DNA of 64,000 nt from Parcubacteria group bacterium GW2011_GWA2_43_11 (GTDB taxonomy: Bacteria > Patescibacteriota > Minisyncoccia > Phycocordibacterales > UBA12088): contig LCFC01000002.1 of assembly GCA_000998805.1 (NCBI GenBank), positions 5,784 through 69,783 of the forward strand, given 5' to 3'. The notes beneath the pieces were generated by a model that was not told the origin of the DNA, did no database searches, and was given only the letters and a program-made list of their open reading frames with translations. Below, in pieces: positions 3,531-60,960 of this stretch. A program made the position numbers and the translations under genes. Position 1 is the stretch's first letter, and every line of letters starts with the position of its first letter.

Positions 3531-5171
3531 CTAATTATGCTTCTCCTCTTTGGACGGAACAGATTTTTCTTCGCAGACAGGGAGCTCAACAGTAAATGTA
3601 CTACCCTTCCCCACCCCTTCCGACTCAACGTTTATCCAGCCCTCATGCGCCTTCATGATTTCTCTGGCAATGTAGAGCCCCAGACCTGTACCTAGCACAT
3701 TTGCATCATTTGCATTTGATGCACGGTTAAACTTTTGGAACAAGTTTTGAATTTCTTCTGATGCTATTCCTATTCCCGTATCTTTAATTTTAACCAGCAT
3801 TTTATGTTCCGGATCCAAAGTTGTAACTGAAATCATTATTGACCCTGTCTGCGTATACTTAATTGAATTATCAATGAGGTTTGAAAAAATTTGTTTCATT
3901 TTTCCTTCGTCAACTTTCACAAGATAATTTTTTTTATTATCACACGTCATGTGTAGCGAAAGACCTTTTTCTTCCGCTACGACACGAAGTTCCTCGATAA
4001 CTGTTTCAAGTATTTTGCAAATATTTTGCGGAACCATGTTGTATATCATACGACCTTGCTCAATTCGTGTAATATTGAGGAAGTCGTCCACCATGATACC
4101 GATTCGTTGGCCTGATTCAAGAATTCGGTGTATTGGTTCGAATAGAGTCGCAGGCACTTCACCATACGTGCCGTCGCTCACGAGAGAAGCATATCCTTTT
4201 ATTGCAGCTATCGGGCTCCGCAACTGATGTGAGGCTATAGAAACAAAATCGGTTTTTTGTTTGTCGAGTTCACGTAATCGAGCATTTGCATTTGCCAAAT
4301 AGCGCGCAAGTTTTTCTCCTTTTTGCCTGCTCTGAATTTCCTCTCGAACATTTTTTGTGACCAGAAAACCAAGAAAAACAATTACAATAAAAACAAGACC
4401 ATTAACTACTTGCAAAACAGGTGTATCAGCAATAAAAACCTGTATAAAAGACGCAACAACAACAAGTCCTATAAAAACATTCATTGCTACCACTTTTAGC
4501 TCGAACAAGTTGTGTCGAAACATCGCGTACATAAGAATTGTTGTAGCAAAGAAACTTAAAGAATAGGTAACTAAAGAACTATTTACATTATAGGCAGGAA
4601 GAAATCCACTTATTGCAACTAATTCATTTGCAAAGAGAACAAAAAATATGAGTATATGTTGTATTCGTTTTGGATGAGAAGTCTCGTTTCGAAAGAGAGT
4701 AAGGATGTCAAATAATACAATGGTGGAAAAAAAACCAAAATATACTAAATAAACATGATGCAATATCCTAGCCTGAGAATGACAACCATTCGAAAAATGA
4801 TTCAATCCATCAATAAAATATGGTGACCAAACAAAAAACCAAAAAATCACCATCAGAGTGTATGCCAATATCACTAATGATTTTCTCTTCTTATTTTCTG
4901 AATAAATACTAGAAAAATGAAAAATGACTGCAGGCACTGCAATAGCAAAAAAGTAGATAACCCTATCAACCATCACTGCAAATTCTGCATTCTCACAGTT
5001 ATTAATCATGAAAGTAGTTAAAAATAACCACATAGTGAGCGCAAATGTAAACAACGCAAAAAATCTTGCTTGGGGTAACTTCCAACCTCTAAATAAAATT
5101 ACTACTCCAGCGAAGGATGTGAACACTCCTGTGACAAATGGGAACAAATAAGGATAGGTATCAAAAAACAT
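3531..5171 (-). CDS. Membrane sensor histidine kinase (multi-TM N-terminus, HisKA + HATPase_c)
   Basis: 546 aa. The hydrophobic N-terminal half is followed by the H-box FVSIASHQLRSPIAAIKGY, the N-box NLIDNSIKYT, and the G-boxes DTGIGI and GTGLGL. No response regulator is adjacent in the window. Confidence 0.85.
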   Translation of the reverse strand: MFFDTYPYLFPFVTGVFTSFAGVVILFRGWKLPQARFFALFTFALTMWLFLTTFMINNCENAEFAVMVDRVIYFFAIAVPAVIFHFSSIYSENKKRKSLVILAYTLMVIFWFFVWSPYFIDGLNHFSNGCHSQARILHHVYLVYFGFFSTIVLFDILTLFRNETSHPKRIQHILIFFVLFANELVAISGFLPAYNVNSSLVTYSLSFFATTILMYAMFRHNLFELKVVAMNVFIGLVVVASFIQVFIADTPVLQVVNGLVFIVIVFLGFLVTKNVREEIQSRQKGEKLARYLANANARLRELDKQKTDFVSIASHQLRSPIAAIKGYASLVSDGTYGEVPATLFEPIHRILESGQRIGIMVDDFLNITRIEQGRMIYNMVPQNICKILETVIEELRVVAEEKGLSLHMTCDNKKNYLVKVDEGKMKQIFSNLIDNSIKYTQTGSIMISVTTLDPEHKMLVKIKDTGIGIASEEIQNLFQKFNRASNANDANVLGTGLGLYIAREIMKAHEGWINVESEGVGKGSTFTVELPVCEEKSVPSKEEKHN

Positions 5172-9358: not shown

Positions 9359-9383
9359 ATCTATGATTTTTATCTGTATGTTT

Positions 9384-9504
9384 AGGACTTACGCAAACGA
9401 GTGCAGTTCTAGGAAAACGAACAAAAAGGAGTGAGTCCCGCCACGGCGGGATGAACGACATTTTGTGAAGTTTGACAACGAAATGCGCCATTTGCGTATG
9501 TCCT
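9384..9504 (+). repeat. R-family element copy R1 (TIR - core hairpin A - TIR), 121 nt
   Basis: AGGACTTACGCAAACG...CATTTGCGTATGTCCT termini. The core is ACAAAAAGGAGTGAGTCCCGCCACGGCGGGATGAACGACATTTTGT. It fills the dnaK-dnaJ spacer and ends 3 nt from the dnaK stop codon. Confidence 0.9.
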
Positions 9505-9507
9505 ATA

Positions 9508-11397
9508 TTATTCTGTTTCAGCATCGCGTACCGTACCCTTATCTTCTTTGTTGGAATCATCATCCTTTTTCTCCGTAGTATCTTTTGAAGCATCGCCTTG
9601 TTTACTTATAGCCTCACCAATTTTAGATACCGATGTCGAAAGCGCGTCGGAAGCATTTCGTATAGCCTGACGATCCGTACCCTCGTTTGTTTTTTTCAAC
9701 GCATCAATTTTTTCTTGAACTTCTTTTTTCAAATCCTCGCCGACTTTATCTCCATACTCCTTGAGCGACTTCTCTGAGGTATATATAAGTTGCTCTGCAA
9801 TGTTTTTGGTCTCAATAAATTCACGTTTTTCTTTATCTTCCTTTTCATGAGTCTCAGCATCGCCTTGCATACTCTTAATATCACTTTCAGAGAGTCCTGA
9901 ACTCGCTTCTATTTTTATCGACTGTTCTTTATTTGAAGCTTTATCCTTAGCGGTCACTTTCAAGATTCCGTTCGCATCTACATCAAAGCTTACCTCAATC
10001 TGAGGCATACCTCTCGGTGCAGGTGGAATGCTGTCAAGAATAAATCGTCCGAGTGATTTGTTGTCTGCTGCCATTGCGCGCTCACCCTGCGTGATGTGAA
10101 TTTCTACCTGTGTTTGGTTATCAGCCGCGGTGGAAAAGGTTTGACTTCTCTGTGTAGGGATGGTCGTGTTGCGCTCTATAAGCTTTGTCGATACACCTCC
10201 CATAGTCTCAATACCAAGGGAGAGTGGAATAACATCAAGAAGGAGAACATCCTTTACATCACCCTGTAGGATACCTGCTTGTATAGCCGCGCCGTTCGCC
10301 ACCACCTCATCCGGGTTGATGGTTTTGTTAGGCTCTTTTCCAAACAATTCTTTTACCACTTTTACGATGGCAGGCATGCGGGTCTGTCCTCCTACGAGAA
10401 TAATCTCATCAATCTCTTCCTTCTTAAACGGAGATGCTTCTATGGCTCGTTTCGTAATAGCGATAGAACGCTGAATGAACTCATCTGCAAGTTCTTCGAG
10501 CTTGGTACGATTCAATTTAAGTAACAAATGCTTTGGTCCGTTTGCGTCAGAGGTGATGAACGGGATGTTGATTTCGGTATCCATAACAGTAGATAGTTCC
10601 ATCTTTGCCTTTTCTGCGGCCTCATCAAGCCTTTGTAGAGCGAGTGGGTCTTTCGTAACATCGATACCCGATTCTTTCTTAAATTCCTCGGCAATCCAAC
10701 GCACTATTTTTTGGTCGATATCTCGACCACCCATGTGCGCATCACCATCGGTACTCTTTACCTCAATAACGTCATCTCCTACTTCAAGTACAGACACGTC
10801 AAACGTACCACCACCGAAGTCAAAGACCACTATTTGTTCGTCTTTTTTCTTGTTGAATCCATATGCCAGAGCCGCCGCTGTAGGCTCGTTGATGATACGT
10901 AGGACTTCTAGGCCTGCTATCTTTCCTGCGTCTTTGGTAGCTTGTCTCTGTGAATCGTTAAAGTATGCAGGAACCGTAATCACCGCTTGGGTGATTTTCT
11001 CACCGAGCTTTCGCTCAGCATCCGCCTTCAGCTTCTGAAGAATCATCGCACTTATCTCCTCAGGTCGATAGTCTTTTTCACCCATCTTTATGAGTACACC
11101 GCCGTTGTCCGCTTTATTTACTTTATAGGCGACTATTTCCTTGTCTTTCTGAACAGCTTCCTCGTCATATGAGTGTCCGATGAATCGCTTGATACCATAT
11201 ATAGTGTTTTCCGGATTGGTAACAGCTTGTCGCTTTGCCACCACACCTACCGCACGTTCCTTCGTTTTTGAAATAGACACGACAGAAGGCGTGGTGCGAT
11301 TCCCTTCTTCATTCTCAATTATTTTTGGTTCACCTCCCTCAATAACAGCCATAGCAGAGTTCGTGGTACCAAGGTCAATTCCTAAAATTTTAGACAT
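9508..11397 (-). CDS. dnaK: Chaperone DnaK (Hsp70)
   Basis: 629 aa with [17 protein letters not shown] and other Hsp70 signatures throughout. Confidence 0.98.
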
Positions 11398-16121: not shown

Positions 16122-16137
16122 GTATTATACCTATCAC

Positions 16138-16386
16138 AGGATTACGCAAACGGATACAGTTCGACTTGTCCTCCGTAGCTCCCGGAGGAGCGGAGGAGGA
16201 GGAAAACGAACAAAATGGAGCGCATCCCGCCACAGGCGGGATAGACGACATTTTGTGAAGTTTGACGACGAAATGCAACCTAATTTTTAACGAACGCAGG
16301 GAGTACCTGCGCGTGCGCATGGTTCTTGTGCCCTGTGGGTATAAAAATGGGAACGCTCTTGCGGTACGCCGATTGTATGAGTTCTA
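16138..16386 (+). repeat. R-family element copy R2 (TIR - F - core A - C with an extra 36-nt insert - degenerate TIR), about 249 nt
   Basis: Opens with AGGATTACGCAAACGG and contains ACAAAATGGAGCGCATCCCGCCACAGGCGGGATAGACGACATTTTGTGAAGTTTGACGACG. The right end CGCCGATTGTATGAGTTC is a decayed TIR that abuts the umuD-like stop codon. Confidence 0.85.
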
Positions 16387-16857
16387 TTACATTCTTCTAC
16401 TTACAGCTGATACCACCCCCCAAATACTCACTTCTCCACCATCCTCAAGCACAAGAGCTGTACTTGATTCACTACCGCAGATCAAAAATTTTTGACCCTC
16501 ATGTTCTGTAAAACGACACAGCGCAAACGCACCATCACGAACAGCCAAGACAAGTCGTCCAAGGGTTGGCGTCAAAGCCCTGTCTATAGTAAGCACATCC
16601 CCAGCATGTATGCCTAAAAATGTATTTTCCCCTATATCAAAATTTTCTTTATTACCTTCTACTTCGATAAAAAATGTTGATGCAGGATTGTGCACAAAGA
16701 GTGCATCTAAAGAAAGAGGGTTTGTGTACTCCTCAAAAAGACCCTCTCTTTCATCAAACTCTTTTGACAAACTTCCGCACACACTACATGCGGTGTGTTG
16801 GGTGAGCATTTTCTTCGATATATGCTCCTTATCTCTAATGAAAGGTACTGATTTCAT
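16387..16857 (-). CDS. UmuD-like S24-fold protein lacking the Ser/Lys catalytic dyad
   Basis: 156 aa. The C-terminal two thirds align to UmuD (HNPASTFFIEV..., GDVLTIDRALTPTLGRLVLAVRDGAF..., VSIWGVVSAV). However GDSM is replaced by GNKE, and the VKK lysine by LCR. Confidence 0.7.
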   Translation of the reverse strand: MKSVPFIRDKEHISKKMLTQHTACSVCGSLSKEFDEREGLFEEYTNPLSLDALFVHNPASTFFIEVEGNKENFDIGENTFLGIHAGDVLTIDRALTPTLGRLVLAVRDGAFALCRFTEHEGQKFLICGSESSTALVLEDGGEVSIWGVVSAVSRRM

Positions 16858-17001
16858 ACAAATGCTTTGGAATAGAAATTAAATAATATATTTATAAACT
16901 TTTTAATGATACTGCGTGACTTCACCACAATTCTTTCTTCTGCAAAATTTTATCAAACCAGCGTTAAGCTACGGTGAAGTTATTGGGATTCATAATATAG
17001 G

Positions 17002-17176
17002 AGGATTTACGCAAACGGGTGCAGTTCGACTTGTCCGCCGTAGCTCTCGGAGGAACGAAGGTGGAGGCGTCCAAGCAAAATGGAATGAGTTGTATTAACA
17101 ATACTACAAGAGACATTTTTGACGGGCAACGCCTGCCTGCGCAGACAGGATGAAATTCACCCGTTTTCGTAAGTCG
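17002..17176 (+). repeat. R-family element copy R3 (TIR - F - core B - extra hairpin - TIR), 175 nt
   Basis: AGGATTTACGCAAACGGG...CCCGTTTTCGTAAGTCGT termini. The core is GCAAAATGGAATGAGTTGTATTAACAATACTACAAGAGACATTTTTG. It ends 4 nt from the lexA stop codon. Confidence 0.88.
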
Positions 17177-17180
17177 TGTA

Positions 17181-17750
17181 TTATGCTCCATACGTACGTA
17201 TCACACTCCTAACCACGCCACCTATTTCGAGAGAAAACTGAGGCCACAAGTCGGGATAGTCTTCATTCGCTGCTTCTAGATACTTTTTACCTTTCTTCTC
17301 TCGTAAGTATTTAACTGTCCAATCACCGTCAAGGTTGGCGACGACAATATCACCCACTTTTGCTTGACTTGTACGCTCCACAAGCAAAAGGTCACCTTCG
17401 TAAATACCCGCATCCACCATAGAAAGACCCTTCACCCGCAGAAGATACATTTTTTCTCTTTTTCCCAACAAAAGCTCATCCACCGAAATTCTATCGAGTG
17501 CCATCTCTTCTGCTGGTGAAGGAAACCCCGCTTCTATGAGTCCAAGCAACGGCACTGTCTCTGTAAGTGCAACAGGCACCAATTTCCCTCGTGAATCTCT
17601 TTCTACCACACCAGCATCAACAAGTTTCTCTACCACCTTGGCAACAGCATTTTTGGAAGCAAAACCAAAGAGTGTACACATTTCACTATAGCCAGGCATG
17701 CGTTTATGCTTCTGAAAAAATGTTCTAAGTATCGTTGTGTATTGTTCCAT
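17181..17750 (-). CDS. lexA: LexA repressor
   Basis: N-terminal wHTH, an Ala-Gly cleavage site (IEAGFPSP), the catalytic Ser in KGLSM and Lys in TVKYL. The ATG at 17750 (MEQYTT...) is preferred. The ORF-track start at 17792 is a TTG lying inside repeat R4. Confidence 0.9.
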   Translation of the reverse strand: MEQYTTILRTFFQKHKRMPGYSEMCTLFGFASKNAVAKVVEKLVDAGVVERDSRGKLVPVALTETVPLLGLIEAGFPSPAEEMALDRISVDELLLGKREKMYLLRVKGLSMVDAGIYEGDLLLVERTSQAKVGDIVVANLDGDWTVKYLREKKGKKYLEAANEDYPDLWPQFSLEIGGVVRSVIRTYGA

Positions 17751-17759
17751 ATGTATTTT

Positions 17760-17880
17760 GAGACTTACGTAAACGGCGCATTTATGTGTCAAACTTCACA
17801 AAATGTCGTTCATCCCGCCGTGACGGGACTCACTCCTCTTTGTTCGTTTTCCTAGAACTGCATCCGTTTGCGTAAGCCCT
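17760..17880 (-). repeat. R-family element copy R4 (TIR - core A - TIR), 121 nt; the only copy in inverted orientation
   Basis: The plus strand reads GAGACTTACGTAAACGG CGCATTT...GTCAAACTTCACAAAATGTCGTTCATCCCGCCGTGACGGGACTCACTCC...CCGTTTGCGTAAGCCCT, which is the reverse complement of the R1/R10 layout. Confidence 0.9.
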
Positions 17881-17918
17881 ATCCTATAATTCGTGTTACA
17901 GCAGTCCATACCTACTAC

Positions 17919-23495: not shown

Positions 23496-23520
23496 ATGAA
23501 GAAGGTTGAACCTTCTTCAT
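23496..23520. repeat. REP-like palindrome, copy 1
   Basis: ATGAAGAAGGTTGAACCTTCTTCAT. The arms ATGAAGAAGG/CCTTCTTCAT pair perfectly. It lies about 45 nt upstream of the RAYT-like gene. Confidence 0.85.
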
Positions 23521-23565
23521 AGAGCTTTATACTATAAATATATTTTCTATATTTAATTTTTGCTT

Positions 23566-24303
23566 ATGCAACGCGAACCGATTGAGACAGACGGTATTTA
23601 TCACATTTATAATCGTGGTGTTGATAAACGAATTACTTTTGATGATGACGATGAGCATAGATATTTTATTCATTTCTTATACACTCTAAATGATTCGAAA
23701 AACACTTCTACTAATATTAGGAGGGATTTTCTATCAATAACAAGATCTAACAATTATAAAACTGCCACTAATGAAGAAGGTTCAACCTTCTTCATTAGTA
23801 AACCTAAAAGATATAAAAGAGACATGTTGGTCGATATATATGCTTTTGTATTAATGCCAAATCATTACCATCTACTTCTCAAACAAAAAGTAGACAACGG
23901 AGTTTCAAAATTTATGCAGAAGTTAGGTACTGGGTATACCATGATGTTCAATGAAAAACACGAACGTTCAGGTTCCTTGTTTCAGGGTCGATATAAAAGT
24001 AAACACATCTTAAGTGATGAACAGCTGAGATATATCACGCATTACATACATCTTAACCCTCTTGGAAAAAATAACTTATTAAATCTAGAAGAGAGTGTAG
24101 AATATTTAAAAAAATATAAATGGAGTAGCTTCCCTGACTATGTTGAAATTAAGAATTTCCCATCAGTTACTTCTCGAGATTTTATTTTTTCTCTTTTTGA
24201 AGATAAGAATAAATATTTAAAGAGCATCAGTTCAGTACTTGAAAAAAATGACCTTTTGTCACATGTTGATTCAAAAGACTGTATTGATTACAGCGACTCT
24301 TAA
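23566..24303 (+). CDS. REP-associated tyrosine transposase-like protein (RAYT / IS200-like HUH-Y1, COG1943 type)
   Basis: YHIYNRG N-terminal motif, the HUH motif in LMPNHYHLLL, GRYKSK, and a C-terminal Tyr helix YITHYIHLNP. The ATG at 23566 is used because the ORF-track start is a TTG. The gene is flanked by REP-like palindromes. Confidence 0.8.
   Translation: MQREPIETDGIYHIYNRGVDKRITFDDDDEHRYFIHFLYTLNDSKNTSTNIRRDFLSITRSNNYKTATNEEGSTFFISKPKRYKRDMLVDIYAFVLMPNHYHLLLKQKVDNGVSKFMQKLGTGYTMMFNEKHERSGSLFQGRYKSKHILSDEQLRYITHYIHLNPLGKNNLLNLEESVEYLKKYKWSSFPDYVEIKNFPSVTSRDFIFSLFEDKNKYLKSISSVLEKNDLLSHVDSKDCIDYSDS
23771..23795. repeat. REP-like palindrome, copy 2, in-frame inside the RAYT-like CDS
   Basis: ATGAAGAAGGTTCAACCTTCTTCAT. 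It encodes NEEGSTFFI within the linker between the YHIYNRG and HUH motifs. Confidence 0.85.
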
Positions 24304-24307
24304 GATT

Positions 24308-25573
24308 TTAAACAGAAGAGAATGAAGAAGGTTGAACCTTCTTCATGTTTTGGGTGGAATGAGAAAGAATGAGGTCACGGTAGACGAACGCGGAGGGGCG
24401 GATGGTGCGCTCGAGGGTGTCGTAGTTTACCTCTACGAGACCGAACCGTTTGTCAAAACCGTGCGCCCATTCATAGTTATCAAGCAAAGACCAATACATA
24501 AAACCCCGAACATCAGCACCGTTTTTTATTGCTTTACCAATACCACCTACTGTTTTTCTAATATAGTCCGCTCGAAAAGCATCTTTTGCGTCTGCACAAC
24601 CACACTCCTCGACGTACACAGGTTTATTATATCGTTGTACTTCCATTATGGCATCGTAAATACCTTCAGGTCGCAAGTCCCATCCCATATCTGTCTTTGG
24701 ATAGTTCGTTTTGCTACCAAAGTCAGTGTAAAAATAATAATTCAAACCAATACTGTCTGAGTTTTTATATATCTTTTTCAAATACCTATGGGTCATATTC
24801 CACATCTGGAATTTTGCCACAAGTTTATAAAAGGGATTCCCGTGAGCATTAAAATAATGCACTTGAAACACTACGGTTACATGTATATGAGGTGCAATCT
24901 CTTTAATCGCACTATACGCAGTGTTGTGTGCACGCGCCAAAACATTCGCAAGTGTAAAAAATTTAATTATTTCCCCCCAATCTGTAGTCGAGTTCTTACT
25001 CAATTCCTTATCATTTGGTATTCGGGCCAATGCAATCAATGGAAAACGTTGAAACGGAGGGAATGTCCCGCGTACCCACCCGTTTATAACTGTCGAATAC
25101 GGTTCATTCAGTGTTGTGAAGTGTGTAGCCAAGTCTGACAAGCGAGAAACAACATATGCACAATACCGTGCAAATATTTCTGGAAAATCCTTGTGCTCAA
25201 TACCACCTTTCGCATCTAGCCAACTAGGAATCGTCCAATGCCACAATGTCACACTTGGCTCAAGATTTCTTTCTCTTAGCGCTCTCAAAACACTTCTGTA
25301 ATGTTCTATTTCCCTATCATCAAACTTCCCTTCCTCGGGCTCAATGCGTGACCACTCTATAGAAAATCTATGTGCGTTGTGTCCGAGAGACTTTGCAATA
25401 TCAAAATCTTGCTCGTAGCGATTGTAGTGGTCGCACGCCTTCCCACACACAGGCACTTTGCCTTCACGAGCGCTCTTCGCCCAGTCATTGTTTTCAATTC
25501 CTCCTTCTACTTGATAGGCAGATGTAGCTGCGCCCCACAGAAACGTATCTGGAAAGACTTTTTTTTCTTGCAT
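24308..25573 (-). CDS. GH1 beta-glucosidase
   Basis: FLWGAATSAYQVEGG, TLNEP (acid/base) and YVEECG (nucleophile region). The ATG at 25573 (MQEKKVFPDTF) is preferred over the ORF-track start at 25603. The last residues (MKKVQPSSFSSV) are encoded by REP copy 3. Confidence 0.9.
   Translation of the reverse strand: MQEKKVFPDTFLWGAATSAYQVEGGIENNDWAKSAREGKVPVCGKACDHYNRYEQDFDIAKSLGHNAHRFSIEWSRIEPEEGKFDDREIEHYRSVLRALRERNLEPSVTLWHWTIPSWLDAKGGIEHKDFPEIFARYCAYVVSRLSDLATHFTTLNEPYSTVINGWVRGTFPPFQRFPLIALARIPNDKELSKNSTTDWGEIIKFFTLANVLARAHNTAYSAIKEIAPHIHVTVVFQVHYFNAHGNPFYKLVAKFQMWNMTHRYLKKIYKNSDSIGLNYYFYTDFGSKTNYPKTDMGWDLRPEGIYDAIMEVQRYNKPVYVEECGCADAKDAFRADYIRKTVGGIGKAIKNGADVRGFMYWSLLDNYEWAHGFDKRFGLVEVNYDTLERTIRPSAFVYRDLILSHSTQNMKKVQPSSFSSV
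24322..24346. repeat. REP-like palindrome, copy 3 (forms the 3' end of the GH1 CDS)
   Basis: ATGAAGAAGGTTGAACCTTCTTCAT, identical to copy 1. Confidence 0.85.
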
Positions 25574-25595
25574 TGCTAATACGATACCATTAGGT

Positions 25596-25630
25596 ATACA
25601 CACAAAGAAAGAGGCATCCCGAAAGATGCC
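25596..25630 (-). terminator. Candidate rho-independent terminator for the 25750-26148 gene
   Basis: The minus strand reads AGGGGCATC-TTTCGG-GATGCCTCT followed by TTCTTTGTGTG. Confidence 0.45.
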
Positions 25631-25706
25631 CCTTTAAAACAGACCGTCAACCCTTAGGTCAACGTGTCAAACCACACCACTGTGGCTGACAAAAGACAAA
25701 AAGTGT

Positions 25707-25731
25707 ATGAGTAAGGTTGAACCTTCCTCAT
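25707..25731. repeat. REP-like palindrome, copy 4 (variant)
   Basis: ATGAGTAAGGTTGAACCTTCCTCAT. One arm change is compensated (A>G with T>C) and one is not. Confidence 0.75.
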
Positions 25732-27691: not shown

Positions 27692-27726
27692 AAGGTCGAC
27701 GTTTTTTGTCGACCTTGTTTATTTAT
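27692..27726 (+). terminator. Rho-independent terminator
   Basis: AAGGTCGAC-GTTTTTT-GTCGACCTT followed by GTTTATTTAT. Confidence 0.7.
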
Positions 27727-27744
27727 AAAAAAATATGTACGTGT

Positions 27745-27986
27745 AGGACTTACGCAAACGGATGCGACCTAATTTTTAACGACCGCAGGGAGTATAAAAA
27801 TGGAAATACCCTTTTGGTGTAATTCGAGGCGCACAAACAAAATACTACGAGTCGTATGAATAGTACGGTGAGGAGTATTTTGTGTAGCGCAACGATGAAG
27901 TACGACCAATTTTTCTTACGATCCGCCAGCTGGCGGAGAATTAGAAAAATGAAGTACTCTTGTGGTGCGCCGTTTTCGTAAGTCCT
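27745..27986 (+). repeat. R-family element copy R5 (TIR - C - core B variant - D - TIR), 242 nt
   Basis: AGGACTTACGCAAACGG...CCGTTTTCGTAAGTCCT termini. It contains module C (GCGACCTAATTTTTAACGACCGCAGGGAGTATAAAAATGG) and module D (CGACCAATTTTTCTTACGATCCGCCAGCTGGCGGAGAATTAGAAAAATGAAG). It ends 3 nt from the ddl stop codon. Confidence 0.9.
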
Positions 27987-27989
27987 AGA

Positions 27990-28961
27990 TTATTTTCGGG
28001 CGTAGGCACGCTCCACCAAATGCCCAAGGAAGCTCGGCAACGTCGCACCCACAGCCTCGACGGTCTTAGGGAGAAGTGAGGTGGGAGTAAGCCCTGGGAG
28101 ACTATTCACCTCGAGGAAGTACACCCCGTCTCGTGCAACGATAAAATCACTCCGCGAATAGTCACGAAGTCCAAGAGTTTTGTGTACATGCTTGGCGGCA
28201 TGCAGGAGAGCGTCGGTCGTTTCTCTAGTGAATGGTGCGGGACAAAGCTCACGCGCATTCCCTCCACACTTTTCTTTATAATCAAAAAGACTTGAATCAG
28301 TGGTGACTATTTCTATCGGAGGAAATGCATACAGATCTTCCCCACGAAATCCATCCGCTACAGCAACAGTTGCTTCTCTGCCCACAATGTACTTTTCAAT
28401 GAGGACATACTCGGTGTGCGTAAAGGCAATGGTCAGAGCATAGAGCAACTCATCAAACGAGGTCACGAGAGCAGTAGCTACAGACGAGCCACCGTTTACG
28501 GGCTTAACTATGCAAGGTAATGGAAACGTTTGGAAAAGCATAATGACACTTTGCTTACTCATTTCATCTTTATGCAAAAGTCGATGCGGGGCGTGTTTAA
28601 ATGGTGCATCTTTCAAGTATCCTTTGGTAAGCGCTTTGTTCATAGCAATAGCTGAAGACAAGGACCCGCTCCCTGTATAGCGACACCCATGAGAATCCAG
28701 AAAACGCTGTACCTCACCATCCTCACCATACTTCCCATGAAGTGCATTAAACATGACATCTACTTGATCGAGTACTCTTGTCGCCTCTACAGGCATACCG
28801 CGCATATGCCACTGTCCTGACCTATCTACAAGGATATCTTTGACCTCATACCGATCTTTTGAGAGATTTTGCAATACCGATTGTCCCGTCTTGAGTGAGA
28901 CTTCATATTCGGCAGATGGACCACCGCGTAATACCCCTACACGCATCTTGTACATGTACAC
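27990..28961 (-). CDS. ddl: D-alanine--D-alanine ligase
   Basis: 323 aa with an ATP-grasp fold. Signatures include RVGVLRGGPSAEYEVSL, HGKYGEDG and FLEVNSLPGLT. Alternative Met starts exist at 28955 and 28946. Confidence 0.9.
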   Translation of the reverse strand: MYMYKMRVGVLRGGPSAEYEVSLKTGQSVLQNLSKDRYEVKDILVDRSGQWHMRGMPVEATRVLDQVDVMFNALHGKYGEDGEVQRFLDSHGCRYTGSGSLSSAIAMNKALTKGYLKDAPFKHAPHRLLHKDEMSKQSVIMLFQTFPLPCIVKPVNGGSSVATALVTSFDELLYALTIAFTHTEYVLIEKYIVGREATVAVADGFRGEDLYAFPPIEIVTTDSSLFDYKEKCGGNARELCPAPFTRETTDALLHAAKHVHKTLGLRDYSRSDFIVARDGVYFLEVNSLPGLTPTSLLPKTVEAVGATLPSFLGHLVERAYARK

Positions 28962-28976
28962 TAGTATAGCAGAAGC

Positions 28977-30242
28977 TTAACCAAGAAGATGTTTAGCTCG
29001 CTTTTTTGTGTGGACTGCGAGTGAAAACCTATGTGCCTCTGCATTTGCGAGCAATATGTCACCTTGATACAGCGTCCGAATCTTAATAGGTCCATGGAGC
29101 GAGCGAGGGTTGTGGTGTGCATCCTTCGTCACTGCTATGAGCGGTATCGCGACACCTGCTTCAGCAAGTACTTTCTTTGCGGTATTTAGCTGTGCTATAC
29201 CGCCATCGAGCACAATGATTCTCGGATACTGCCACTCTGGGTGTGCAAGTCTTCTCTCTAGAAGCTCCTTGAGTGCGCCGGTATCGCTTCCCTCTACAGC
29301 AGTACGGATAGTAAAGGTGCGGTACTCTTTCTTTTGTGCCTCACCACCCACTACCGCCACCATAACCCCAACCGTGTTTTTCCCCCCGAGGTGCGCGACG
29401 TCGTACCCTTCTATGCGAATAGCATCGGTAACTCCTTCTCCTCGCTCCTTCCGGATGAGTGACACATCTTCTATATGTTGAAGTGCAAAAAGTTGCTTCT
29501 TTGCGATATGAGCATTCTCAAATTGTTCTTGCTTTGCAAACCGTCGCATGTCTCGTTCTAGTGTTACAACCACAGATTGTAACTTTCCGTCAAAGATAGT
29601 TTTAATATGTCGTATATTCCTCCTGTACATCTCTTTTGTTATCGATGCGTTCGGATACACACCAATTGATTGATTAAAACGGAGTTTGCTGTCATTCTTC
29701 GCCATGAGCTCATCTACTGGACGCTTCGTATCATAGTACGGAAAAATCTTCCGGATTATTTTAAGCGCCTGTTTAAACTGCGTCGCATGTGGAAAGGGAC
29801 CATAGACCAATGGTTCAACTTTTTTTCCTATTCCTGTATTCCGTGCCACGAGCTCGTTGTAGCGCATTGGCAGTTCCTTGCCCCGCACGGTCAACAGCCG
29901 TGGATACGCCTCATGTATCGTGATGATGAGAAAGTTAAAACTCTTGTCATCTTTATCGCGAACGTTAAACGGCGGTTTAAGCTCTTTGATACATTTTGCT
30001 TCCAATATAAGAGCCTCAAGTACCGAATCTGTCTGGCGAAAGTCTACGCGTACTGCCCGCTCTACCATAGCAACCATTTGATTACCACGGGCAGAAGCTA
30101 GTGTCGACGCAAAGTAACTGCGCACCCTGTCTTTGAGAGAGGTCGCTTTCCCGACGTAGAGCACCTCCTGCTTTGGACCTAGGAAAAAGTAGACTCCGGA
30201 TGCATCAGGAAGTTTTTGTATGCTTGAATGATTTAATATCAT
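28977..30242 (-). CDS. uvrC: Excinuclease ABC subunit C, short form lacking the C-terminal (HhH)2 domain
   Basis: 421 aa with a GIY-YIG domain (GVYFFLG...LYVGKATSLKDRVRSYF), a UVR-like helix (FENAHIAKKQLFALQHI) and an RNase H-like endonuclease domain (IEGYDVAHLGG). The ORF ends before any HhH motif. Confidence 0.85.
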   Translation of the reverse strand: MILNHSSIQKLPDASGVYFFLGPKQEVLYVGKATSLKDRVRSYFASTLASARGNQMVAMVERAVRVDFRQTDSVLEALILEAKCIKELKPPFNVRDKDDKSFNFLIITIHEAYPRLLTVRGKELPMRYNELVARNTGIGKKVEPLVYGPFPHATQFKQALKIIRKIFPYYDTKRPVDELMAKNDSKLRFNQSIGVYPNASITKEMYRRNIRHIKTIFDGKLQSVVVTLERDMRRFAKQEQFENAHIAKKQLFALQHIEDVSLIRKERGEGVTDAIRIEGYDVAHLGGKNTVGVMVAVVGGEAQKKEYRTFTIRTAVEGSDTGALKELLERRLAHPEWQYPRIIVLDGGIAQLNTAKKVLAEAGVAIPLIAVTKDAHHNPRSLHGPIKIRTLYQGDILLANAEAHRFSLAVHTKKRAKHLLG

Positions 30243-30252
30243 GATATTGGAT

Positions 30253-30374
30253 GGGACTTATGCAAACGGATGCAGTTCGAGACGCCCTAGCAAAATGGAA
30301 CAAGTTGTATGAACAATACTACGAGAGACATTTTGTGCAGGGCAACGATGAAATGCGCCGTTTGCATAAGTCCC
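30253..30374 (+). repeat. R-family element copy R6 (TIR - core B - TIR), 122 nt, with a perfectly paired, doubly compensated TIR
   Basis: GGGACTTATGCAAACGG...CCGTTTGCATAAGTCCC termini. It fills the uvrA-uvrC spacer, lying 1 nt from the uvrA stop and 10 nt from the uvrC start. Confidence 0.92.
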
Positions 30375-30375
30375 A

Positions 30376-32961
30376 TTAGAGTACCTTTTTGAGATACTTA
30401 CTGGTATGAGAATCTTTACTTCGTGCCACCGTCTCGGGTGTACCCTTTGCTACAATGGTACCGCCTCCTACACCACCCTCAGGTCCTATGTCTATAATCC
30501 AGTCCGCAGACTTTATCACGTCAAGATTATGCTCTATGAGTACCACGGTATTACCTCGTTGTATAAGTGCATTTAGTACATCAAGAAGTTTTTTGACATC
30601 ATCATAGTGCAGACCGATTGTTGGTTCATCCAGAAGATATATTGTTTTTTCTGTGTGTGGTCGATAGAGTTCACTCGCAATCTTCACACGTTGTGCCTCA
30701 CCTCCCGAGAGTGTGTTTGCCGCTTGTCCAAGCTCGAGGTACTCAAGACCGACGTCGCTCAGAGTCTGAAGCCTATCGCTTATCTGCGGAATGTCTTTAA
30801 AAAATTCCAAACCATCCTCTACACTCATGTGCAAAATATCATAAATATTTTTCTTTTTGTACCGAACATCAAGGGTCTCTTTCATAAAACGCTTTCCGTC
30901 ACACACGTCACAAGTGACATACACCGTGGGCAAAAAGTGCATTTCCACCGCTATGGTGCCATTTCCCTGACATGCCTCACAACGTCCACCACCCTTACTT
31001 GTCGACACGTTAAACGAGAACCTCCCAGGCTTCCACCCGCGTGCTCGTGCTTCTTCTGTAGAGGTAAATAAATCTCGAACGTGCGTCCATACTCCCGTGT
31101 ACGTGGCGGGGTTACTCCGTGGAGTTCGTCCAATAGGACTCTGGTCCATAAGTACCACACGGGAGAGGTACTCTGTCCCAGTCAAACTTGAAATGTTATA
31201 CAACTTCGCAGTACGGAACTGTCTCTCGAGTCGTGCCCGTAAGTTTTTAAACAATAGCTCGTACATCAATGTAGACTTGCCAGAACCTGACACCCCCGTA
31301 ATGGCGACAAGTTTTCTGAGTGGAATATCAACATTCATTTCTTTTATGTTGAACGCATTGCCGTTTCGTATCCGAAGCCATCCAGCTTCTTCTTCACGGC
31401 GTTTTTCTGGAACTTCTATCTCTTCTTCCCCACGCAGGTAGGCAAGTGTTCGTGAACCACTCTCATTCTTTTTTGCGGTGAGCAAATCTTCGAGCCAGCC
31501 AGACACCACTACCTTGCCCCCGTGTATGCCTGCCCCTGGCCCTATATCCACGATATAGTCTGCGGAGAAAATAGTATCCTCGTCGTGTTCCACGACAATA
31601 ATCGTATTACCTAAATCACGTAGCGCAGTCAACGTTTTAATGAGCTTATCATTGTCTCTTTGGTGCAGTCCTATGGTCGGTTCATCCAGCACATAGAGAG
31701 CTCCTACCAAGCCTGATCCAAGCTGGCTCGCTAGGCGAATTCTCTGCGCCTCACCACCCGAGAGTGTGTTTGCGCGTCTATCAAGGGTAAGATAATCGAT
31801 GCCTACGTTGAGCATAAACTGCAATCGCGCATGTATCTCACGAAGCACTACAGACGCAATTTCTTTTTCTTTTGGTGTGAGCGTGAGCGTGTTCATAAAT
31901 GTTTGTGCGTCACGTATAGACAGAGAGGTGACGTCTACAATTGTCTTCCTAGTTTTTTTGTCTTTACCGAGAAAGACATGGAGCGCCTCAGGACGAAGTC
32001 GTTTCCCCTCACAGACAGGACAGATGTCATCATGGAAAAAACCGATTGTCCCCAAACCATTACACTCTGGACACGCGCCGTACGGAGAGTTAAATGAGAA
32101 AAGCCTTGGTTCAACTTCTGGAAACGAGGTCCCATCCTTTGGACAAATAAATTTTGAGGAAAGCGTCTGTAGTGTGCCGTCTGGTGCTTCTATTTCTATA
32201 AGCCCTTCTGATTCTCGAAGTGCAAGCTCGATAGCTTCTGCTAAACGCTCCTGTGCATCTTTCTTGGAACCAGTAAACTCCGAGACATAGAGCTCATCAA
32301 CCAACACACTAATGTCATGGCGCTTTTGTTTGCTGAGTACAATCTTTTCCCGTAATGAGTATTCGACGGTATCTATTTTCACTTTTTCGTACCCCTTCCC
32401 AAGCAGGTCATACAAGAGCTGGTAGTATTCACCTTTTCTTCCTACGACGACTGGTGCCCACAGACGCACCTTCCTATCATCGTAAGAAATACCCATTACC
32501 TCTTTATTGTTTTTTTCTCCTGAAATAAGAACACTCTCAAGCACTCTTTTCTGCATCTCTTCGTTTGAAAGCTTATGTATCGGCGTATCACACTTAGGGC
32601 AGTATGCCGTCCCAACACGTGCGTAGAGGATACGCATGTAGTCATACACCTCGGTAATGGTCGCAACGGTGGAACGAGGGTTATTCGATCTGGACTTTTG
32701 ATCTATCGAAATAGCCGGAGAAAGACCAAGTATTTCATCAACGTCAGGCTTTCGCATTTGATTTAGAAACTGTCGAGCATATGCCGAGAGTGATTCGACA
32801 TACCTCCTCTGCCCTTCCGCAAAAATAGTATCAAATGCGAGTGATGATTTTCCAGAACCAGAAAGACCAGTAAAAACCACCAGTTTGTTTCTAGGCATGG
32901 TCACAGAAATGTTCTGTAGATTGTGAGTGCGTGCACCCTTTACGTGTATGATGTCATCCAT
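30376..32961 (-). CDS. uvrA: Excinuclease ABC subunit A
   Basis: Two ABC ATPase modules ([26 protein letters not shown] x2) and zinc-finger Cys clusters. The ATG at 32961 ([15 protein letters not shown]) is preferred. The ORF-track start at 32982 is a TTG. Confidence 0.97.
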
Positions 32962-33081
32962 CCCGTTAGAGACAGGACACAAAGTGTCCGTCGGTTAAAC
33001 TAATAATTCTTTTATAATTCCATGTATTCATAATTACTTTTATTTAAAACGTATTTTTAGATCTGTTGTCTCTAACGGGAT
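32960..33081. repeat. Small inverted-repeat-bounded AT-rich segment at the uvrA 5' end
   Basis: ATCCCGTTAGAGACA (32960-32974) and its reverse complement TGTCTCTAACGGGAT (33067-33081) flank about 90 nt of AT-rich DNA. There is also an inner palindrome GGACAC-AAA-GTGTCC at 32975-32989. Only a single copy is seen. Confidence 0.4.
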
Positions 33082-40353: not shown

Positions 40354-40364
40354 ACAACAATGAT

Positions 40365-40580
40365 AGGACTTACGCAAACGGATGCGACCTAATTTTCAAG
40401 GAGTGAAACGACTATGAAAATGGAAATGCCCTTGCGGTACAGTTCTAGGAAAGCGAACAAAATGGAGCGAGTCCCGCCACGGGCGGGATGAGAGATATTT
40501 TGTGAAGTTTGACAACGAGAATGCGACCAATTTTTCTTACGACTGTAAGGAGTTAGAAAAATGAAGTGCCCTCGTGGTGT
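40365..40580 (+). repeat. R-family element copy R7 (TIR - C - core A - D), right TIR missing
   Basis: AGGACTTACGCAAACGG, then module C with a covarying stem (AATTTTCA/TATGAAAAT), core A and module D. Homology to R5 stops at ...GTGGTG (40580), inside the ybeY ORF. Confidence 0.85.
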
Positions 40581-44572: not shown

Positions 44573-44624
44573 AGACATATACGTACACTTCCACAAATAG
44601 ATACTTGAGAAGAGAGATCGTCCA

Positions 44625-44879
44625 AGACCTACGCAAATGGATGCGACCAATTTTTCTTATGATCCGCCAGCGTGCGGAGAGTTAGAAAAATGAAGTACTC
44701 CTGCTCGCCCCGTATACAGCTATGCTGTTGTACTGGGGTGGTGCAATTCAAGGCGCCAGAACAAAATAGAATGAGTTGTATGAGTAATACTACGAGAGAT
44801 ATTTTGCGACGGGCCCTGTACTAGAGCGAAGCTTCAGTACGGGGCGGGCAACGATGAAGTGCGCCGTTTGCGTAGGTCA
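44625..44879 (+). repeat. R-family element copy R8 (TIR - D with nested hairpin - core B with nested hairpin E - TIR), 255 nt
   Basis: AGACCTACGCAAATGG...CCGTTTGCGTAGGTC termini. Nested hairpins lie at 44708-44738 and 44814-44844, the latter flanked by a duplicated CGGG. Confidence 0.9.
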
Positions 44880-44911
44880 TGTTACAGGCGCTGTTGTTGC
44901 AACTCCTTTCT

Positions 44912-53967: not shown

Positions 53968-54039
53968 TGGCCCTATCGTCTAACGGTTAGGACATCGCCT
54001 TCTCAAGGCGGTAATCAGAGTTCGATTCTCTGTAGGGTC
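53968..54039 (+). tRNA. tRNA-Glu (anticodon CTC)
   Basis: Manual cloverleaf: acceptor GGCCCTA/TAGGGTC, D stem GTCT/GGAC, anticodon stem TCGCC/GGCGG with loop TTCTCAA, T arm CAGAG-TTCGATT-CTCTG, discriminator A. CCA is not encoded. Confidence 0.9.
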
Positions 54040-54046
54040 ACAAAGG

Positions 54047-54088
54047 TTAGAACAAAACACACTGCGAGCAAGCAGTGTGTTTTGTTCT
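54047..54088. other. Perfect 18-bp hairpin immediately downstream of the tRNA
   Basis: TAGAACAAAACACACTGC-GAGCAA-GCAGTGTGTTTTGTTCTA. It has the same ACAAAA...TTTTGT design as the hairpin at 53643-53677 and the R-family cores. Confidence 0.6.
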
Positions 54089-54351
54089 AGAAAACAAACT
54101 GCTTTGCTTTCGTACCTTTTGTGAGGTCGGAGCATATTTTCTGCTCTTTCCTAGAGCAGAAAATAGCCGAGGCGAGGTGTCGAAGAGCACTTAGTATTTT
54201 AGAAACGAAGTGTCCTAAAATACTTAGGAAAATTATACCAACCACAATTGAGTTAAACCCAATATATCTAATACAAACTTGATTCTTTTTTAAGATTTCA
54301 AATCAAATAACGGATTTCCACTTCATGATTGTTTTTTTCAGATTTTGTACT

Positions 54352-56919: not shown

Positions 56920-56947
56920 TTGCTTTTACTGATAAATAATATCTTCT

Positions 56948-57069
56948 AGGACTTACGCAAACGGGTGAAATTCAAGGCGCCCGAACAAAATAGAACGAGT
57001 TGTATGAATAATACTACGAGAGATATTTTGTGACGGGCAACGATGAAGTACACCGTTTCCGTAAGTCCT
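56948..57069 (+). repeat. R-family element copy R9 (TIR - core B - TIR), 122 nt
   Basis: AGGACTTACGCAAACGG...CCGTTTCCGTAAGTCCT termini. The core is ACAAAATAGAACGAGTTGTATGAATAATACTACGAGAGATATTTTGT. It fills the ftsI-murF spacer and ends 3 nt from the ftsI stop. Confidence 0.92.
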
Positions 57070-57072
57070 GGC

Positions 57073-60705: not shown

Positions 60706-60798
60706 AATGAGTATTTTGTCTTACCTATTTATCCACAAAAAAACAATACGGAAAGGAAAATTATCCTTGTAATAAAAGACTATTTCAATTACTTACCT

Positions 60799-60919
60799 AG
60801 GACTTTCCCAAACGTCGTACTTCTAGGAAAACGAACAAAATGGAGTGAGTCCCGCCACGGGCGGGATGAACGACATTTTGTGAAGTTTGACAACGAAATG
60901 CGGCGTTTGGGTAAGTCCC
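60799..60919 (+). repeat. R-family element copy R10 (TIR - core A - TIR), 121 nt
   Basis: AGGACTTTCCCAAACG...CGTTTGGGTAAGTCCC termini with a compensated G>C/C>G pair. Core A is identical to R1 apart from one base. It lies in the divergent mraZ / relA spacer. Confidence 0.92.
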
Positions 60920-60960
60920 ATTCTTGCTTGGAAAGAACAAATGTCGCATAGTGTACAAGT

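Follow-up and report, generated by a model that had tools for sequence, protein, structure and literature searches.

Bacterial miniature inverted-repeat transposable elements (MITEs) typically fold into long stem-loops, lie at the 3' ends of genes and can affect mRNA stability (PMC3184786). The bcr1 repeat of the Bacillus cereus group, a non-coding sequence of ~150–155 bp, is flanked by 5-bp direct repeats and its location is not conserved between strains; it is transcribed, and base-pair compensatory changes maintain its cruciform-like fold (PMC3184786). ERIC, an imperfect palindrome of ~127 bp that folds end to end, is found in intergenic positions within transcription units and has effects on mRNA stability (PMC3184786); the Correia/NEMIS elements are listed in Table 1 of the same paper. 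REPINs, which are hairpins of ~100 nt mobilised by RAYTs, show compensatory changes as well (PMC3116915). Here we describe a family of short repeats, the R elements, in a stretch of 64,000 nt (the window) from contig LCFC01000002.1 of Parcubacteria group bacterium GW2011_GWA2_43_11, a member of the candidate phyla radiation (CPR) from Rifle groundwater; the same region is present in GCA_000997835.1 (LCCJ01000001.1) and in several groundwater metagenome assemblies. Compensated hairpin pairing in MITE-like repeats is already known, and R is a new family showing the same.

The R family is a non-autonomous transposable element, a MITE, of Parcubacteria-type CPR bacteria, and the covariation over its elements is real and far beyond chance. 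The explanation that we favour, with somewhat better than even confidence, is that selection on the single-stranded fold maintains the rod of this MITE over its full length, and that a copy is retained only if its position and orientation make it harmless or useful in transcripts, which means directly after a stop codon and in a single orientation.

Compensatory pairing along the R elements

The basic R unit is ~124 nt long, lacks coding capacity and forms a single rod-like hairpin with conserved internal loops. In the copy R6, located in the spacer between uvrC and uvrA, the span 30253–30374 (122 nt) runs from GGGACTTATGCAAACGG (30253–30269) to CCGTTTGCATAAGTCCC (30358–30374), and these two ends are reverse complements of each other (17/17). 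The 122 nt fold into one long imperfect hairpin with a minimum free energy (MFE) of -61.2 kcal/mol on the + strand and -53.0 kcal/mol on the - strand; shuffled sequences reach -25.8 ± 3.6 kcal/mol, so z = -9.8 for the + strand. The covariance-model score of R6 is 139.7 bits on the + strand and 55 bits on the - strand. Compared with the family consensus (TAGGACTTACGCAAACGG / CCGTTTGCGTAAGTCCTA), both arms of R6 are changed together at two positions (A>G with T>C, and C>T with G>A), and both compensated pairs are derived relative to the copy found in the same spacer of Parcubacteria GW2011_GWD2_42_14.

The first-pass annotation, made from the letters of the window, had pointed out such changes in R6, R8, R10, a core stem and a module stem, and all of its statements about these sequences could be found again in the window. 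R10 (TCCCAAACG / CGTTTGGGT) has G:C replaced by C:G, and R8 (GACCTACGC / GCGTAGGTC) has T:A replaced by C:G. The base of the core stem reads AAAATGG..GACATTTT in some copies and AAAATAG..GATATTTT in others, R7 having the G.T form (of the 59 copies, 37 have GC here, 20 have AU and one has GU). The module stem is AATTTTTA/TATAAAAAT in R2 and R5 and AATTTTCA/TATGAAAAT in R7, and the same covariation is seen in 38 distinct module copies. The annotation gave compensated cases only; there are uncompensated ones too (T.T in R10; A.A and U.G in R8; T.T and C.A in R1).

The pairing was tested on an alignment of 59 distinct short-form copies, which was built with MAFFT and not fitted to structure. RNAalifold predicts for this alignment a rod of 41 pairs, 27 of which have at least one double compensatory change. 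Standard pairs occupy 97.4% of the 2,416 pair cells, compared with 88.1 ± 0.3% when partners are shuffled and 33–45% when the partner is slid by 1–3 columns; double-change cells number 265, against 84 with shuffled and 12–43 with slid partners. None of 500 shuffles matched the observed value on any of five pairing measures. Mutual information (MI) with average product correction, computed over all column pairs and blind to structure, ranks three predicted pairs at the top (49-85, 24-113 and 13-125), and 13 of the 21 variable predicted pairs are mutual best MI partners among 137 columns. The mismatch-prone pair 14-124, which RNAalifold omitted, likewise has rank 1 in MI.

On a neighbor-joining tree with parsimony, 74 branches have both partners of a pair substituted such that one Watson-Crick pair replaces another (0–2 for the slid controls), while single-sided events comprise 50 to mismatch, 46 to G.U, 29 from G.U to Watson-Crick and 15 from mismatch to Watson-Crick. 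The proposed covarying pairs are therefore supported by the MI, shuffle/slide and tree tests, and compensated changes exceed uncompensated mismatches (74 double Watson-Crick events versus 50 mismatch events), so that neither of the outcomes named in the annotation as refuting its claim is seen. Overall divergence among the copies is about 24%; the asymmetric internal loops are nonetheless conserved in sequence. Pairing that is kept by recurrent compensation, partly via G.U intermediates, argues that the single-stranded folded form is under purifying selection.

Mobility and conservation in place

Terminal inverted repeats (TIRs) of 18 nt, with the consensus given above, delimit 113 elements of no more than 400 nt in the DNA examined. 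For target duplications, the joined flanks of each copy were searched against the other loci for orthologous empty sites, and the matches were read by hand (L-numbers are labels of comparison loci from other assemblies and metagenomes). The empty sites set the element boundaries at TAGGAC...GTCCTA, with a 5-bp target duplicated. There are three clean filled/empty pairs: L013 versus L046 (duplication TGAGT), L035 versus L092 (RTATA) and L044 versus L034 (AAGTA). Two further pairs are older or messier and have approximate duplications; one of these is the empty site in the window (Table 1) compared with L020. When left and right flanks are compared over 71 distinct insertion contexts, length 5 is the only one at which the match peaks (0.48 per base, with 0.25–0.35 at other lengths and 0.30 in a shifted control), and at least four of the five flank positions match in 15 of 71 copies versus 2 of 71 in the control. 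The target consensus is AT-rich, TnnTA. A TA target duplication as in IS630- or ERIC-like elements is ruled out, as the empty sites place the TA inside the element.

The TIRs, the filled and empty sites and the 5-bp duplication together identify the family as a MITE; judged from these sequence features, the marks would be those of a MITE moved by a duplex-cutting transposase. The first-pass annotation had contrasted the R elements with classical MITEs, whose TIRs have no need to covary. This contrast did not stand, since R itself has the TIRs and target duplications of a MITE and compensation has already been reported for bcr1 (PMC3184786) and REPINs (PMC3116915).

Conserved loops with covarying stems are the usual hallmark of functional RNA, and one could read the copies as free-standing structured RNA genes or cis-regulatory RNAs that do not move. 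We consider this highly improbable: R copies are present or absent at orthologous sites of related genomes and have target duplications, a scan of R9 and R10 showed no conserved promoter, and they are unrelated to the function of the neighbouring genes. Furthermore, Rfam 15 at the gathering threshold gave only a tRNA on the whole window and none on the R elements, and even at E < 5 the R elements in 27700–30420 had no Rfam match.

Resident copies appear to be conserved in place. At all five same-orientation orthologous sites in diverged genomes the identity of the R element is above that of the 150-nt flanks (93.5% versus 80.4%, 96.0% versus 82.4%, 96.0% versus 83.3%, 100% versus 91.5% and 97.6% versus 92.0%), whereas the target duplications have mostly decayed. 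Four same-site pairs and the inverted pair of R6 and L022 together have ~30 differences, of which three are double compensated, seven are exchanges between Watson-Crick and G.U, nine are mismatches and about 12 lie in unpaired columns; by a rough estimate, independent change of the two sides would yield ~0.1 double compensations. Some sites have been rearranged. R6 (30252–30375) and L022:7075-7198 occupy the same uvrC-uvrA spacer and have rare core variants in common, and yet the L022 copy is inverted relative to the flanks. In another example, L065:446-569 and L047:6384-6514 have identical junctions and the same arm variant, but their cores are different and inverted. Such inverted or swapped cores suggest flipping or replacement by recombination through the inverted arms; with recombination between copies, part of the apparent conservation could be concerted evolution.

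Longer R elements contain additional hairpins. What the annotation had called module C and a second module belong to one family of 53–64-nt hairpins (CGACC(A/T)AATTTTT, a stem-loop, then AAAAATGAAGTACTCTTGTGGT), the distinct copies of which all lie within or beside R elements. Their stems covary (ATTTTTCT/AGAAAAAT versus ATTTTTGT/ACAAAAAT versus ATTTTCA/TGAAAAT). Two near-identical orthologous R copies, L048 (121 nt; 1956-2080) and L021 (174 nt; 870-1047), are exactly one module apart, and three other orthologous sites likewise differ by one module. The module occupies a constant position in either arm, always in one orientation with respect to the sequence around it, and has the 4-nt repeat G(C/T)AC on both sides; its gain and loss would fit slippage deletion as well as a second-order mini-element that inserts. 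In composite copies the fold is branched and closed by the terminal stem, as in R5.

The window holds 10 R copies, nine on the + strand and one on the - strand (repeat finding, nhmmer and the covariance model agree), and these sum to 1,764 nt, or 2.8% of the window (Table 1). A degenerate core pattern retrieved 18 stretches in four one-genome-per-species bacterial assemblies (Parcubacteria GW2011_GWD2_42_14, one Azambacteria metagenome-assembled genome (MAG) and two MAGs labelled Saccharibacteria). Metagenomes yielded 70 stretches, and viral contigs none. With nhmmer over all collected DNA there are 143 hits, 95 of full length and 61 distinct. TIR-delimited lengths are discrete: ~102, ~120 (the majority), ~174, 203–213, 240–255 and up to 340 nt.

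Three of the window copies (R2, R3 and R4) lie within 1.8 kb (16137–17881) and bracket genes for a LexA-like protein (Peptidase_S24), a 156-aa protein and a DinB/IMS-type polymerase. With R6 in the uvrA-uvrC spacer, SOS and repair genes are over-represented among the neighbours of R elements in the window, which is probably a coincidence in a dense genome. Elsewhere, L012:2094-2523 and 4103-4979 (MAG binchicken_co245_132) have several R copies within 3 kb, head-to-tail or inverted, and this cluster resembles the higher-order arrays of REP sequences (BIMEs). A hairpin at 54046–54091, just after a tRNA-Glu gene (53969–54041), gives weak R covariance-model hits on both strands (E about 0.05) and is probably an unrelated terminator-like palindrome.

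Table 1. Coordinates of R elements and associated features in the window
Feature	Position	Strand	Remarks
R1	9383..9505	+	short form; 2 nt from dnaK stop codon (9508-9510), 24 nt from dnaJ start
R2	16137..16386	+	composite; extra 5' hairpin and a hairpin module in 3' arm; 3' arm degenerate; 3' end touches stop codon of 156-aa gene
156-aa gene	16387-16857	-	
R3	17001..17178	+	composite; 2 nt from stop of LexA-like gene (17181..)
R4	17759..17881	-	short form; sole minus-strand copy; 108.9 bits on -
R5	27744..27987	+	composite; one hairpin module per arm (27762-27819, 27903-27967); 2 nt from ddl stop
uvrC	28977-30242	-	
R6	30252..30375	+	short form; 124 nt including terminal TG..CA; between uvrC start and uvrA stop
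R6 target duplication, left copy	30247-30251		TTGGA
R6 5' TIR	30252..30269	+	TGGGACTTATGCAAACGG; exact complement of 3' arm
R6 3' TIR	30358..30375	+	CCGTTTGCATAAGTCCCA
R6 5-bp target duplication, right copy	30376..30380	+	TTAGA; first 3 bases are the complement of the uvrA stop codon
uvrA	30376-32982	-	
R7	40364..40579	+	composite; truncated, without 3' terminal arm
R8	44623..44881	+	composite; module and two further hairpins
R9	56947..57070	+	short form; 2 nt from stop of PBP gene 57073-58791(-)
R10	60798..60920	+	short form; divergent promoter region
Hairpin modules	16273-16365, 27762-27819, 27903-27967, 40382-40438, 40524-40579, 44644-44708		
Empty site	25501..25636	.	R element at orthologous position in Parcubacteria GW2011_GWD2_42_14 (L020:3730-3849)
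Y1 IS200-like transposase gene	23560-24303	+	HUH motif HYH; Pfam E = 5.5e-11
Perfect 25-nt palindromes	23496-23520, 23771-23795, 24322-24346, 25707-25731		ATGAAGAAGGTT(G/C)AACCTTCTTCAT

The favoured strand and placement at stop codons

The two strands of an R element do not fold equally well. The strand read in the first-pass annotation has the more stable fold of the two in 58 of 59 copies, with mean MFEs of -52.9 versus -43.7 kcal/mol under RNA parameters and -28.2 versus -24.7 kcal/mol under DNA parameters, and covariance-model scores are 115–140 bits on the better strand and 36–56 bits on the complement. Among the non-Watson-Crick cells of the alignment, G.T (141) is far more frequent than A.C (28). 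Three family-wide wobble positions exchange with Watson-Crick pairs only: U.G in 48, C-G in six and U-A in four of the 59 copies at columns 22-115, A-U in 34 and G.U in 21 at columns 42-94, and G-C in 32 and G.U in 24 at columns 56-76. A mutational bias was considered as the source of the G.T excess and rejected, because the + strand of the window is C-rich, which pushes the other way; deamination of the non-template strand would likewise predict the opposite. The asymmetry indicates that the constraint is on a folded single strand; recognition of duplex TIRs or a symmetric cruciform would not produce it. The annotation's proposal that a folded single strand is under selection is supported by covariation that is recurrent, statistically strong, strand-asymmetric and spread over the whole element rather than the termini alone.

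Covariation could also arise with no selection on the fold, if one arm were corrected on the template of the other (by quasipalindrome template switching, or by mismatch repair in a transient hairpin) and copies were converted by one another. There are indeed a great many double changes (84 events, 65 of which fall on terminal branches), and the inverted or swapped cores at the same site indicate recombination or conversion. Mechanical correction should, however, erase wobbles and internal loops, whereas the three G.U positions persist and the asymmetric loops are conserved across the divergence of the family; G.U intermediates are also commoner than A.C, fitting thermodynamic filtering rather than copying. 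We therefore regard this explanation as improbable.

R elements have a strict placement with respect to stop codons (open reading frames of at least 100 aa served as proxies for genes). Between genes of the same direction, the better-folding strand is antisense in 31 cases and sense in seven. Of the stop codons that abut an element (at -3 to +2 nt), 29 lie at its 3' end and three at its 5' end (p = 2.6e-6), and the stop codon at the 3' end belongs to a gene on the opposite strand. The distances between stop codon and terminus are -3 (seven cases), -1 (two), 0 (six), +1 (five) and +2 (12); at the modal distance of +2, the stop codon and 2 nt make up the 5-bp duplication. In the window, the 3' ends of R1, R2, R3, R5, R6 and R9 are 0–2 nt from the minus-strand stop codons of dnaK, the 156-aa gene, the LexA-like gene, ddl, uvrA and the PBP gene, respectively. 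Between convergent genes, a stop codon lies within 2 nt of the 3' end at seven out of 11 sites and within 2 nt of the 5' end at one (a site with both ends abutting).

Where a copy is not next to a stop codon its target looks symmetric (TAnTA), and both termini of the element have the same sequence, so orientation would be filtered after insertion and not set by the chemistry of insertion; post-insertion selection is the more likely cause of the orientation bias. In seven cases the terminal TAG of an element (TAGGAC) is itself the stop codon of the neighbouring reading frame (e.g. L027:312-435, L046:9447-9570 and L051:825-948), and these seven insertions redefined the C-terminus of a protein.

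The arena of this selection is most likely the transcript, as copies lie in operon spacers right after stop codons, where they would have to be co-transcribed, take one orientation and diverge less than their flanks. A compact, fully paired rod would probably keep an insertion of 120 nt harmless or useful in a polycistronic mRNA: it might hold the stop codon close to the next start, serve as a 3' hairpin or avoid unwanted processing, and selection would remove any copy or orientation with a poor fold or with harmful motifs exposed.

Alternatively, selection could act on the element itself as single-stranded DNA, the rod having to form in one DNA strand for excision, synapsis or copying; in that case the bias in orientation would follow from which strand is exposed, genes being merely correlated with the direction of replication. 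This accounts for the better-pairing strand usually not being the mRNA strand, and for nine of the 10 window copies lying on one strand even where the local genes switch strand (R7, R8 and R10). REPINs, which also show compensation, are thought to move as single-stranded DNA hairpins (PMC3116915), and the R fold is favoured under DNA parameters too. Nevertheless, a fixed 5-bp duplication with perfect TIRs is the signature of duplex cut-and-paste or copy-paste transposition of the DDE type. Single-strand transposition of the HUH/Y1 type leaves no target duplication. In addition, resident orthologous copies are conserved and compensate in situ, which selection on propagation only would not predict, and the abutting stop codon is found at the 3' end even between convergent genes (7 cases versus 1). 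We thus judge the single-stranded DNA explanation to be unlikely, with some weight left to it. No two elements on the same contig have opposite gene directions, so that pairs of this kind do not separate replication-linked from transcription-linked orientation.

Several observations weigh against selection on the fold in transcripts. The first concerns the strand: because the 3' end abuts an opposite-strand stop codon, the better-pairing strand is usually the complement of the operon mRNA. The mRNA would correspond to this complement in 31 of the 38 contexts within operons and at 29 of the 32 termini that abut a stop codon, and in the mRNA-side complement the three family-wide G.U pairs turn into C.A mismatches. 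This paradox is a poor match for an explanation at the level of RNA, unless it is the weaker fold that is tolerated. When de novo single changes are counted, G.U outnumbers A.C by just 48 to 30 (p = 0.054), with no detectable difference by gene context (12 versus 7 where the element is antisense, 6 versus 4 where it is sense). Ten copies are in divergent promoter regions, where read-through transcription is not assured. A scan for sigma-70 promoter and intrinsic-terminator consensus sequences found none inside R9 or R10, and overall counts were below shuffled expectation. Gene conversion between copies could mimic slow divergence in situ.

Nor was a source of mobility found. There is no autonomous partner and no kb-sized TIR pair in about 0.8 Mb of loci, and in the parts of the window covered by gene calls Y1_Tnp is the only transposase domain. 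A single TIR pair exceeds 400 nt (L021:3646-4998), and it probably results from an orphan arm being paired with a copy next to it; orphan arms in general were taken to come from composite, degenerate or contig-end copies, and some were checked against the module hits.

A further reading, which we hold with low confidence, takes the R rods to be more than tolerated junk and gives them one of two natures: (a) a host-retained operon module, placed by selection at stop codons and in one orientation, or (b) a replicator that is selected as the single strand opposite to the mRNA. Under (b), the selected form would be an antisense RNA or a specific DNA strand, and a route of transposition or maintenance would have both a stage as a folded single strand and a 5-bp target duplication; to our knowledge, no described family unites the two. 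If this reading is true, the nested modules that come and go at one fixed site in either arm would be a second-order parasite or an expansion segment.

The Y1 locus and comparison with described systems

The window also contains a gene for an IS200-like Y1 transposase, and its presence raises the question of whether the R elements are REP doublets mobilised by this gene, as in a REPIN-RAYT system. The gene and the compensated hairpins that REPINs and R have in common speak for such a system. We consider it very unlikely: the Y1_Tnp gene is flanked by a different 25-nt palindrome (ATGAAGAAGGTTGAACCTTCTTCAT), which is confined to that locus in the DNA examined, and not by R arms; the R elements make 5-bp target duplications; and, by eye, R arms have no internal inverted repeat of the kind seen in REP units. 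The target duplications and the gene's own palindrome were the grounds for setting aside REPIN-RAYT as a class for R. The locus looks like a RAYT/REP-like unit unrelated to the R family. One of its palindromes lies in frame inside the Y1 reading frame, coding for ..TNEEGSTFFIS.. between the N-terminal YHIYNRG strand and the HUH motif, and GW2011_GWD2_42_14 (L020, L041) has a conserved arrangement of gene and palindromes, with spacings of 275 and 551 nt. A 155-nt insertion after dnaJ in L095 (13117-13216, ANAN16-1 scaffold_3239) was rejected as an assembly artefact, being an N run with duplicated flanks.

To what is known of compensated repeats, the R family adds its CPR host group, the size of the covariation, the rule of stop codon and orientation, the mismatch between favoured strand and mRNA, and the nested modules. 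A literature search retrieved no description of MITEs in CPR (Patescibacteria), and core-pattern scans of species-representative assemblies and metagenomes found no R family outside CPR-type genomes. CPR genomes are tiny and gene-dense, yet a few percent of the window is structured repeat. With dozens of independent compensations, conservation in situ, a 29-to-3 stop rule and a favoured strand that is not the sense strand, the family is unusually clean material on why many bacterial MITEs fold end to end. For annotation, R elements account for many of the 'long' intergenic spacers in these genomes and also supply stop codons.

Like bcr1, R is a small non-coding repeat with 5-bp duplications, variable location and a compensated fold; the two differ in host phylum and, compared by motif alone, have no apparent sequence relation, and neither the strict stop-codon and orientation rule nor the optional modules of R are known to us from bcr1. 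R resembles ERIC in its end-to-end fold and in having longer variants with internal insertions, but ERIC has TA flanks, whereas R has a 5-bp duplication and its terminal TA is part of the element. By eye, neither ERIC nor Correia is related to R in sequence. Unlike REPINs, R has TIRs and target duplications and is not a doublet of REP palindromes. The PATEs derived from IS200/IS605 have neither TIRs nor a target duplication and insert 3' of a fixed tetra- or pentanucleotide; they are small, non-coding and hairpin-bearing as R is, and act through folded single strands. A PATE of the IS200/IS605 type was rejected as a class for R, which has TIRs and a target duplication whose sequence varies around TnnTA. 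The Correia/NEMIS elements of Neisseria are MITEs of ~100–160 bp with TIRs, are co-transcribed with their neighbours and form RNA hairpins; they duplicate TA and pair mainly through 26-bp TIRs, while in R the whole body is paired and covarying.

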